DNA of 64,000 bases. Origin: an uncultured Methanomassiliicoccales archaeon. Its GTDB lineage: Archaea > Thermoplasmatota > Thermoplasmata > Methanomassiliicoccales > UBA472. Below the pieces are notes generated by a model that did no database searches, had not been told where the DNA came from, and worked only from the letters and a program-made list of their open reading frames with translations. Below, in pieces: positions 40,621 through 41,033 of the stretch. Position 1 is the stretch's first letter. Every line of letters starts with the position of its first letter. Position numbers and translations under genes: made by a program. The stretch is taken from positions 400 to 64,399 of the forward strand of contig CAWDCQ010000019.1 in the NCBI GenBank assembly GCA_963800775.1. The letters run 5' to 3'.

Positions 40621-41033
40621 ATGAGAGCCAAACTCACAATAAACTATAACAATGTTAGGAAGCGCGGAAACAACATGCCTCTCCCGGGCGTCGGACCACA
40701 CTCGATGCCACTGCCCGGAGTTGGACCTCATTACATGACCGCTTCCAGGGGTTGGACCGCAGCAGTATGCCGCTCCCCGGAGTTGGACCTCGTTCCATGT
40801 CATTGCCCGGTGTCGGACCACACTCGCTGCCGTTCCCCGGATTTGGACCTCATTCCATGCCACTTCCCGGCGTAGGGCCACACAGCATGCCTCTCCCGGG
40901 CGTCGGACCACACTCAATGCCACTACCAGGGGTAGGGCCTCATAAGACCTACAAGATGCCATTTCCCGGTGTCGGGCCCCACAGCACCGGTGGCTATACC
41001 ATGGGTCTCCCCGGCGTAGGGCCTCACAACTAA
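40621..41033 (+). CDS. Decapeptide tandem-repeat protein, about 11 copies of MPLPGVGPHS; 2-nt frame disturbance in copy 3
   Basis: ORFs 40612..40875 and 40752..41033 share the repeat. Copies differ mainly at third codon positions. Short basic N-terminus MRAKLTINYNNVRKRGNN. Stop TAA at 41031. Confidence 0.6.
40675..41030 (+). repeat. 30-nt tandem repeat array (11 units; units 9 and 10 extended to 39 and 45 nt)
   Basis: Units start at 40675, 40705, 40735, 40767, 40797, 40827, 40857, 40887, 40917, 40956 and 41001 (hand parsed). Confidence 0.85.

Follow-up and report, generated by a model that had tools for sequence, protein, structure and literature searches.

The locus described here lies in a 64,000-nt stretch of DNA (the window; contig CAWDCQ010000019.1, assembly GCA_963800775.1) from an uncultured archaeon of the order Methanomassiliicoccales, and is centred on a small forward-strand gene composed of a short basic leader followed by a tandem array of near-identical peptide units (Table 1). 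This is a real gene under strong peptide-level selection, which occupies a fixed place beside a gene encoding a STAND-TPR regulator and shares a promoter box with a DUF835 gene. As proposed in the initial annotation of the window, the array comprises 11 units of the MPLPGVGPHS type; the accompanying proposal that units measure exactly 30 nt applies to most of them, the others measuring 32, 39 and 45 nt (in order from 40675: 30, 30, 32, 30, 30, 30, 30, 30, 39, 45 and 30 nt). Peptide variants within the array include MSLPGVGPHS, LPFPGFGPHS, MPFPGVGPHSTGGYT and MGLPGVGPHN. Periods of 30 and 60 nt were recovered by Tandem Repeats Finder (TRF), and a degenerate core pattern (YTNCCNGGNRYNGGNCC) matched 10 times in the window, all within the array, against 0.15 matches expected from shuffles. 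Pairwise comparison of the 11 units, following repair of a broken frame in unit 3, distributed their differences 63:20:291 among codon positions 1, 2 and 3. Peptide-level selection is therefore real, and the earlier reading of a coding array kept by selection on its product is supported.

Also borne out were the descriptions of a protein with a short basic N-terminus (here an 18-residue leader), without signal peptide or transmembrane segment, and belonging to no recognised family. The highest 15-residue Kyte-Doolittle mean of the window protein is 0.39, and no family scored above threshold in Pfam-A, NCBIfam or PADLOC, the only family line being a sub-threshold RecR_HhH artefact (16.9 bits). 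AlphaFold2 modelled the repeat protein without secondary structure (predicted local distance difference test, pLDDT, 54.6; predicted template-modelling score, pTM, 0.10), and it is thus predicted to be disordered.

Relatives were sought by sequence pattern and by profile. When 185,579 species genomes were scanned for the pattern, three loci were identified (two in metagenome-assembled genomes of Methanomassiliicoccales and one on a metagenome chromosome). Six more small proteins came from an exhaustive comparison with 1.84 billion representative proteins by HMMER and a subsequent profile search, and their contigs were retrieved for locus comparison. The other 78 matches of the representative-protein search were discarded as unrelated low-complexity repeats (mucin-like TPGVGPPETT and similar). 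A protein search by word index, for which the repaired protein of the window served as query, gave no match, two pattern scans of metagenome contigs gave 0 matches, and exact look-ups of the window's own open reading frames (ORFs) returned no record. From these searches we identified intact orthologues, with the same leader and 2-9 units, in nine independent Methanomassiliicoccales loci (with the window, the window clade), in which the frame is preserved and the neighbours are kept, which is the outcome that the initial annotation had asked of related genomes.

Comparison of these close orthologues revealed two layers of conservation. The leader reads M-K-V-K-S-T-x-N-Y-H-N-V-R-x-R-G-K-N (family consensus MKVKSTVNYHNVR.RGKN), differs between loci in the ratio 54:97:260 across codon positions 1:2:3, and is hydrophilic throughout the clade (Kyte-Doolittle maximum 0.5). 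The units share a fixed core, LPG[V/T]GP, followed at the position of the window's His by H, Y, W or T, with units of one genome in agreement. Unit types, with their spacers in brackets, are MPLPGVGPH (none or N), MPLPGVGPY (K, N or E), MPLPGTGPY (none or E), MPLPGVGPT (R, Q or K), MTLPGVGPW (EASN) and [V/M]TLPGVGPH (none, with A after the last unit). Among L001-L005 all differences between units are synonymous (0:0:140, 0:0:120, 0:0:162 and 0:0:47). Units are further organized into super-units (60 nt in L001, 84 nt in L002/L003) that are near-identical, recent duplicates of one another, and within one super-unit 5-7 of the 7 four-fold degenerate sites differ between units. L001 has a partial duplication of the leader (6880-6965, minus strand), reading MRIKSTTKYSNIRNKTT and then MKYSNVRNRGKN. 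The L002 orthologue ends in TAG (4916-4918); pyrrolysine is used by Methanomassiliicoccales, and read-through of this codon is conceivable.

More distant members were reached through the STAND neighbour, for which about 180 homologues were found, the window clade at 84-92% identity being followed by a jump to 45-55%. The latter group includes a protein named in NCBI as Methanomassiliicoccus luminyensis (P0131), which adjoins the gene occupying the same slot in L014/L015. In four distant loci the product of the slot gene begins with a basic segment and a hydrophobic stretch (22-27 residues; Kyte-Doolittle 2.6-3.3) and then carries tandem cores, namely 12 copies of IPGVDPH[A/V] in L013, three of TIPLIDPH in the M. 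luminyensis-type L014 (one copy in L015), four of IPG[N/D]DPH in L016/L017, set among non-repeated spacers of 9, 18 and 12 residues, and five of NIPGIDPI in L018. Differences between the distant cores again fall almost entirely at third positions (0:0:252, 0:0:47 and 3:0:26), and Met is absent from the homologues in L013, L014, L016 and L018. One Cys lies mid-helix in each of the hydrophobic N-termini of these four loci (VLACLV, VAICVG, VAACGV and VGACAL, respectively), which could represent a lipobox-like feature or a coincidence.

Across the family the core can be written [I/L]-P-[G/L]-x-[D/G]-P-[H/Y/W/T/I], present in 1-12 copies after an N-terminal segment, and the Met-Pro of the window clade is effectively a conserved spacer. 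Spacers range from 0 to 18 residues around fixed cores, and in 7 of the 14 distinct genes a core runs straight into the stop codon, which together argue for cores as independent modules. Products measure 36-140 aa (36 aa in L010, 135 aa in the repaired window gene and 140 aa for the listed ORF of L013, or ~130 aa if started at the ATG preceded by a Shine-Dalgarno site), and exceed 100 aa only through copy number. The genes thus appear to constitute an undescribed small-protein family across the order Methanomassiliicoccales, although we do not claim that the motif is absent from the literature.

Closer inspection of public gene calls (P0005, P0050, P0082, P0081 and P0083) indicated that in some of them the small protein has been lengthened upstream, through its own promoter, to N-termini that read 'MLKD.FNIHK...' or 'MITVACSK...'. 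The 'MLKD.FNIHK' extension was rejected as coding: it is the region of the box and TATA-like element described below, is out of frame in the window, and is preceded by stops in L002/L003. At L013 (8702-9034, plus strand) the public gene caller had instead taken the antisense strand of the repeat (110 aa). A 146-aa antisense ORF in the window (40615-41055, minus strand) was likewise rejected as a by-product of the repeat, because antisense peptides vary among the units of relatives and the plus-frame peptide is identical. Also rejected were an LPXTG sortase motif, since LPGTG occurs in two members and V occupies that position in most, and a beta-solenoid or polyproline II bundle, since units differ in length, spacers are variable and the AlphaFold2 model is unstructured. 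An Rfam scan of positions 38000-44000 gave no match, and a scan of the region for sigma-70 promoters and terminators is uninformative for archaea.

Upstream of the small gene we identified a 12-nt box with a palindromic core, which together with the adjacent TATA-like element probably forms an archaeal-type promoter. The box occurs exactly twice in the window, where ~0.008 copies would be expected from length alone (128,000 positions / 4^12), the second copy being found in the promoter of the DUF835 gene. It was present upstream of the small gene in 18 of 18 loci (with one mismatch in five), at a distance of 5-7 nt from the TATA-like element. Where a locus covers both promoters (the window, L001-L003, L007 and L013-L018), both boxes are present in the same orientation and geometry, distant loci included. 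In L018 both boxes read AGCATGCTCCAA, having undergone the identical A-to-C change; a pattern allowing this variant is AGCATGCTC[A/C]AA. The intergenic region of copA and lrp, genes of a nearby copper (cop) module, contains conserved blocks of its own and no AGCATGCT box.

The gene that adjoins the small gene encodes a regulator of the MalT/PH0952 type. Intact orthologues of 900/901 aa are found in L001-L003 and L007, and lengths across loci range from 887 to 915 aa. The protein matches PH0952 (PDB 6mfv) across NOD, arm and TPR with an E-value of 1e-22; winged-HTH matches at the N-terminus are weak, and the TPR region matches TPR_12, TPR_MalT, TPR_1 and TPR_2 as well as PDB entries for PH0952 and LGN/Pins. 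The small gene directly adjoins the STAND gene, in convergent orientation, in 15 of the 15 loci that reach that side and in the window, where the gap is 67 nt. In L016/L017 two extra genes lie between the small gene and its HAD/cop side, and the small gene still stands beside the STAND gene. We know of no peptide inducer for the PH0952 clade. The domain order of the neighbour, with N-terminal DNA-binding region, NOD and TPR, is that of MalT/PH0952 factors, a likeness that belongs to the neighbour and not to the repeat gene; in the sections of the source drawn on here, PH0952 is presented as a predicted transcription factor with an N-terminal DNA-binding effector, and those sections name no inducer (PMC6468293).

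Table 1. Coordinates of the small gene, its control elements and selected neighbouring features in the window.
Feature	Position	Strand	Remarks
Small-gene ORF	ATG 40621, stop 41031-41033 (TAA)	+	Basic leader of 18 aa, then 11 units MPLPGVGPH(x)
Leader coding region	40621..40674	+	MRAKLTINYNNVRKRGNN; 18 aa, basic and hydrophilic
Tandem array	40675..41030	+	11 units of MPLPGVGPH plus a spacer of 1-6 residues
Span of two 1-nt insertions	40738..40762	+	A at 40738 and G at 40762; frame broken in unit 3 (40735-40766)
Invariant block TAACTGTAGCATGCTCAAA(G/A)A	40544-40564	+	Holds the box; invariant in nine aligned window-clade loci
12-nt box AGCATGCTCAAA	40551..40562	+	Palindromic core AGCATGCT; upstream of small gene
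TATA-like element TTTTAATAT	40568..40576	+	5 nt 3' of box; putative promoter element
Shine-Dalgarno-like GGGTG	40610..40614	+	6 nt 5' of ATG; conserved in upstream alignment
Inverted repeat TTCCTCC-GTAA-GGAGGAA	41060..41077	.	7-bp arms; between the convergent small gene and STAND gene
HTH-STAND(NOD)-TPR regulator	41101..43800	-	MalT/PH0952 type, ~900 aa; Pfam AAA_16, ATPase_2, NB-ARC
Second box AGCATGCTCAAA	43885..43896	+	5 nt 5' of TTTATATA (43902-43909); DUF835 promoter
DUF835 gene	43938..44495	+	Pfam PF05763; promoter with second box
Lrp/AsnC-TRASH regulator	38671-39270		Part of cop module
copA P-type ATPase	35971-38560	-	Part of cop module

Our preferred reading of these features, held tentatively and a little short of calling it probable, is that the small gene encodes a multi-copy peptide precursor, or a multivalent ligand, of an undescribed family that is tied to the STAND-TPR module and controlled by the box. 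Of the three hypotheses in the initial annotation, that of a multi-core precursor accords best with the anatomy, although within about 10 kb there are no maturation enzymes. Each copy of the core would act independently, as one bead on a string, and not as part of a folded repeat domain or as a Met/His metal site. The small gene would be transcribed from the TATA promoter behind the palindromic box, with the other copy in the region controlling the DUF835 gene; most likely, the STAND regulator would bind the box and control both flanking genes, and the repeated peptide would serve as ligand of its TPR sensor or as a dedicated output. Since in the window clade an 18-residue basic leader stands in place of the hydrophobic segment, the peptide may there act intracellularly or leave the cell by another route.

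A number of observations weigh against this interpretation. Binding of the box by the STAND regulator is something that we infer; the window clade lacks a signal peptide; no processing protease, exporter or importer was identified around the small gene; and the small gene is convergent with its presumed regulator, not co-directional, the latter being a protein of ~900 aa with an NTPase core and in this respect unlike RRNPP receptors. In addition, the order PALP, asparaginase, DUF835, STAND, small gene, HAD, RidA, Lrp-TRASH, copA is kept across the order Methanomassiliicoccales, so that adjacency alone is weak evidence. The window copy is frameshifted, with units more diverged than those of its relatives, and short-read assemblies may under-count units.

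Peptide-receptor pairs of the RRNPP/RRNPPA type (Rap-Phr, NprR-NprX, PlcR-PapR and AimR-AimP, from Firmicutes and phages) offer a comparison for the proposed precursor. Their propeptides often contain several copies of the pheromone, which is usually C-terminal and variable at one position (PMC9765709), and pairs have been recognised as directly neighbouring genes for a propeptide of 10-100 aa with a Sec or PptAB export signal and a receptor of 250-500 aa comprising an HTH (or none) and TPR repeats (PMC10075063). The present locus is alike in having a small propeptide-like product, whose gene directly adjoins that of a cytoplasmic TPR regulator, in the tandem copies with variability concentrated at one position and often a C-terminal peptide, and in the conserved palindromic box within the peptide gene's own promoter. 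The basic N-terminus and hydrophobic segment of the distant homologues could serve for export or for anchoring, and would in the former case be a further likeness. It is unlike these systems in its archaeal host, its convergent genes, its up to 11-12 copies, the absence of a secretion signal from the window clade, and a candidate receptor well outside the usual size range, in which a STAND NTPase core is set between winged HTH and TPR. The relation is one of analogy and not of membership. Resemblance was also noted to polyprotein precursors (yeast alpha-factor, apidaecin and ustiloxin-type), in which many identical copies are separated by short variable spacers; unlike these, the small gene has no dibasic (Kex2-type) sites and a prokaryotic host. 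In such eukaryotic or fungal precursors, too, copies are conserved as peptide and not as codons.

By analogy with these pairs, the proposed precursor could be extended to an archaeal signalling circuit, which we consider unlikely as a whole. A propeptide with up to 12 signals of 7-9 residues would be released (and in most lineages exported) and sensed by the STAND TPR region, upon which the STAND factor would multimerise, bind the box and drive positive feedback together with expression of the KaiC/FlaH-like DUF835 gene. Lineage-specific identity of the signal would then depend on which residue (H, Y, W, T or I) closes the core, comparable to the pherotypes of Firmicutes.

Much the same doubt attaches to the suggestion that the product is a Pro/Gly-rich disordered structural or surface protein of elastin-like character, helix-anchored in most lineages, in which units have no role as ligands and whose gene is no more than a target of some regulator. 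LPGVG resembles the elastin unit VPGVG, the Pro/Gly-rich protein is predicted to be without structure, as the initial annotation had supposed in proposing a disordered elastin-like scaffold, copy number varies, and the 22-27-residue hydrophobic stretches of distant members look more like anchors than cleaved signal peptides. However, a 7-9-residue peptide that is invariant across saturated synonymous sites and uniform in each genome fits poorly with elastic or spacer repeats, which need neither property, as do spacers of 0-18 residues. Unlike (VPGXG)n proteins, the units of 9-10 residues (7-8 distantly) contain an invariant non-elastin half and show no guest-residue variability; in place of a regular VPGXG period with a tolerant guest residue we found a period of 27-45 nt with one LPGVG per unit, and distant cores such as IPLIDPH and IPGIDPI are not elastin-like. 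Furthermore, the L016 cores sit among long non-repeated spacers, and the window clade is under strong selection yet lacks an anchor.

The state of the window copy itself is a separate matter. The two extra nucleotides that had been remarked upon in copy 3 were resolved into two separate single-base insertions, and their removal is the sole two-base deletion that yields exactly MPLPGVGPHS in unit 3, the frame being intact in every orthologue. We regard a local assembly fault as the most likely cause, because the frame runs on through the next eight units without a stop or another shift, and because the promoter is undamaged. The earlier attribution to assembly error is thereby plausible, the insertions falling in an indel-dense zone of about 3 kb (~39500-42350, with frameshifting indels of 1-2 nt), although read-supported decay would still be compatible with the same pattern. 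Under this improbable alternative the insertions are real and the copy is a decaying pseudogene within a degenerating region that includes the HAD (39696-40455, minus strand), RidA (39271-39660, minus strand) and STAND-TPR genes, of which the first two are also frameshifted in the window. Decay would be consistent with the clustering of indels, about 13 of which, relative to intact orthologues, shift the frame of the STAND gene in its final 1.15 kb and none in the first 1.46 kb, with the printed indel contexts, most of which are not long homopolymer runs, and with window units holding more amino-acid variants than those of any relative. Conversely, a perfect consensus unit is obtained once the two bases are excised, the units keep a strong third-position bias, the box, TATA-like element and Shine-Dalgarno-like site are all intact, and copA, which lies outside the zone, is likewise split (near 36944-37092), suggesting general assembly noise.

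A role in metal binding, in which the protein would serve the copA/YHS/Lrp-TRASH module as a buffer or chaperone of Cu(I), Cu(II) or Ni, is more doubtful still, and the Met/His Cu(I)-binding hypothesis put forward in the initial annotation is disfavoured. The cop module is indeed nearby, at 1.35 kb (given previously as 1.4 kb), and whenever a locus extends far enough it is seen on the HAD side of the slot, with the limit that L016/L017 contain two intervening genes and no called TRASH-domain gene. Met is nearly invariant in the window clade, each unit offers Met and His, or in distant homologues Asp and His, and the latter carry D-P-H in products that would be exported or anchored. In these short Met- and His-containing tandem units near a copper-ATPase locus the gene resembles the Met/His copper repeats of Pseudomonas CopA/CopB, PcoA (MxxMxHxxM), the E. 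hirae CopB N-terminus and CusF, and H, Y and W can each contribute to Cu(I)/Ag(I) sites, as in CusF. Against this, no candidate ligand is conserved: His gives way to Y, W, T or I, the distant homologues lack Met, and Asp becomes Gly in the window clade. One Met per 9-10 residues is unlike the MxxM and MxxMxHxxM motifs of known copper proteins, and the window clade, lacking an export signal or transmembrane segment, is cytoplasmic by sequence, whereas cytoplasmic copper sites use Cys and Met-rich sites are usually exported. The box, moreover, is common to the DUF835 promoter and not to the copA/lrp promoter, and in L016/L017 the small gene is set apart from the cop side.

Least probable of all is a multi-core precursor of a ribosomally synthesized and post-translationally modified peptide (RiPP) whose modifying enzymes would be encoded elsewhere in the genome: in its favour are the leader, repeated cores and variable linkers, as in cyanobactin, graspetide and triceptide precursors, a core that in most members closes with His or an aromatic residue, and weak generic matches of the STAND-TPR protein to TPR proteins of RiPP systems (HaaT, 40.8 bits; FxSxx_TPR, 34.6 bits), but those scores are far under the curated cut-offs (1125 and 300 bits), distant homologues have a membrane or signal segment in place of the leader, and, unlike in RiPP clusters, no radical-SAM, ATP-grasp, cyclase, protease or other maturation enzyme lies near the small gene (~10 kb in L007, ~20 kb in the window), RiPP maturation enzymes being absent from 10 kb upstream and 4.5 kb downstream in L007 and from ~34-62 kb in the window.

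To our knowledge, Firmicutes and their mobile elements are the only setting in which RRNPP-type peptide regulation has been described, and we know of no peptide ligand for an archaeal STAND/MalT-like regulator. The locus offers a concrete candidate for a peptide circuit, in the form of an order-wide module of four parts: two DUF835 genes, an HTH-STAND-TPR gene, a tandem-peptide gene and a shared operator. Judging by the M. luminyensis-type loci, the module seems also to occur in the lineage of cultured human-gut methanogens. Should signalling prove to be the wrong explanation, the analysis would still provide an undescribed small-protein family that is miscalled in public annotation (by extension across the promoter or on the wrong strand), an unusually clean example of peptide-level selection on tandem units, and the removal of a tempting but unsupported copper-binding annotation.

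Further features of the neighbourhood were also recorded. The DUF835 protein was modelled by AlphaFold2 with a pLDDT of 69.8, and its top Foldseek match was FlaH (PDB 4yds; TM-score about 0.5), giving a predicted FlaH/KaiC/RecA-like fold; read by eye, its sequence has no obvious Walker A motif (GxxxxGK[S/T]). Three DUF835 paralogues are present in the window (43938-44495, plus strand; 44522-45196 and 54718-55257, both minus strand), and two paralogues lie tail-to-tail beside the STAND gene in several of the loci that extend to this side (the window, L001, L014/L015, L017 and L018). The inverted repeat between the small gene and the STAND gene may form a putative terminator hairpin, possibly shared by the two genes. 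The only nearby transporter is a MacB-type ABC system (47676-51440; an ATPase and a 922-aa FtsX/MacB_PCD permease) ~6.6 kb downstream, a possible exporter that nothing ties to the module; in L018 an ABC ATPase is found on the same (PALP) side of the module. Towards the end of the window, a DDE transposase gene (60485-61918, minus strand) lies beside tRNA-Leu(GAG) (62213-62299, plus strand).

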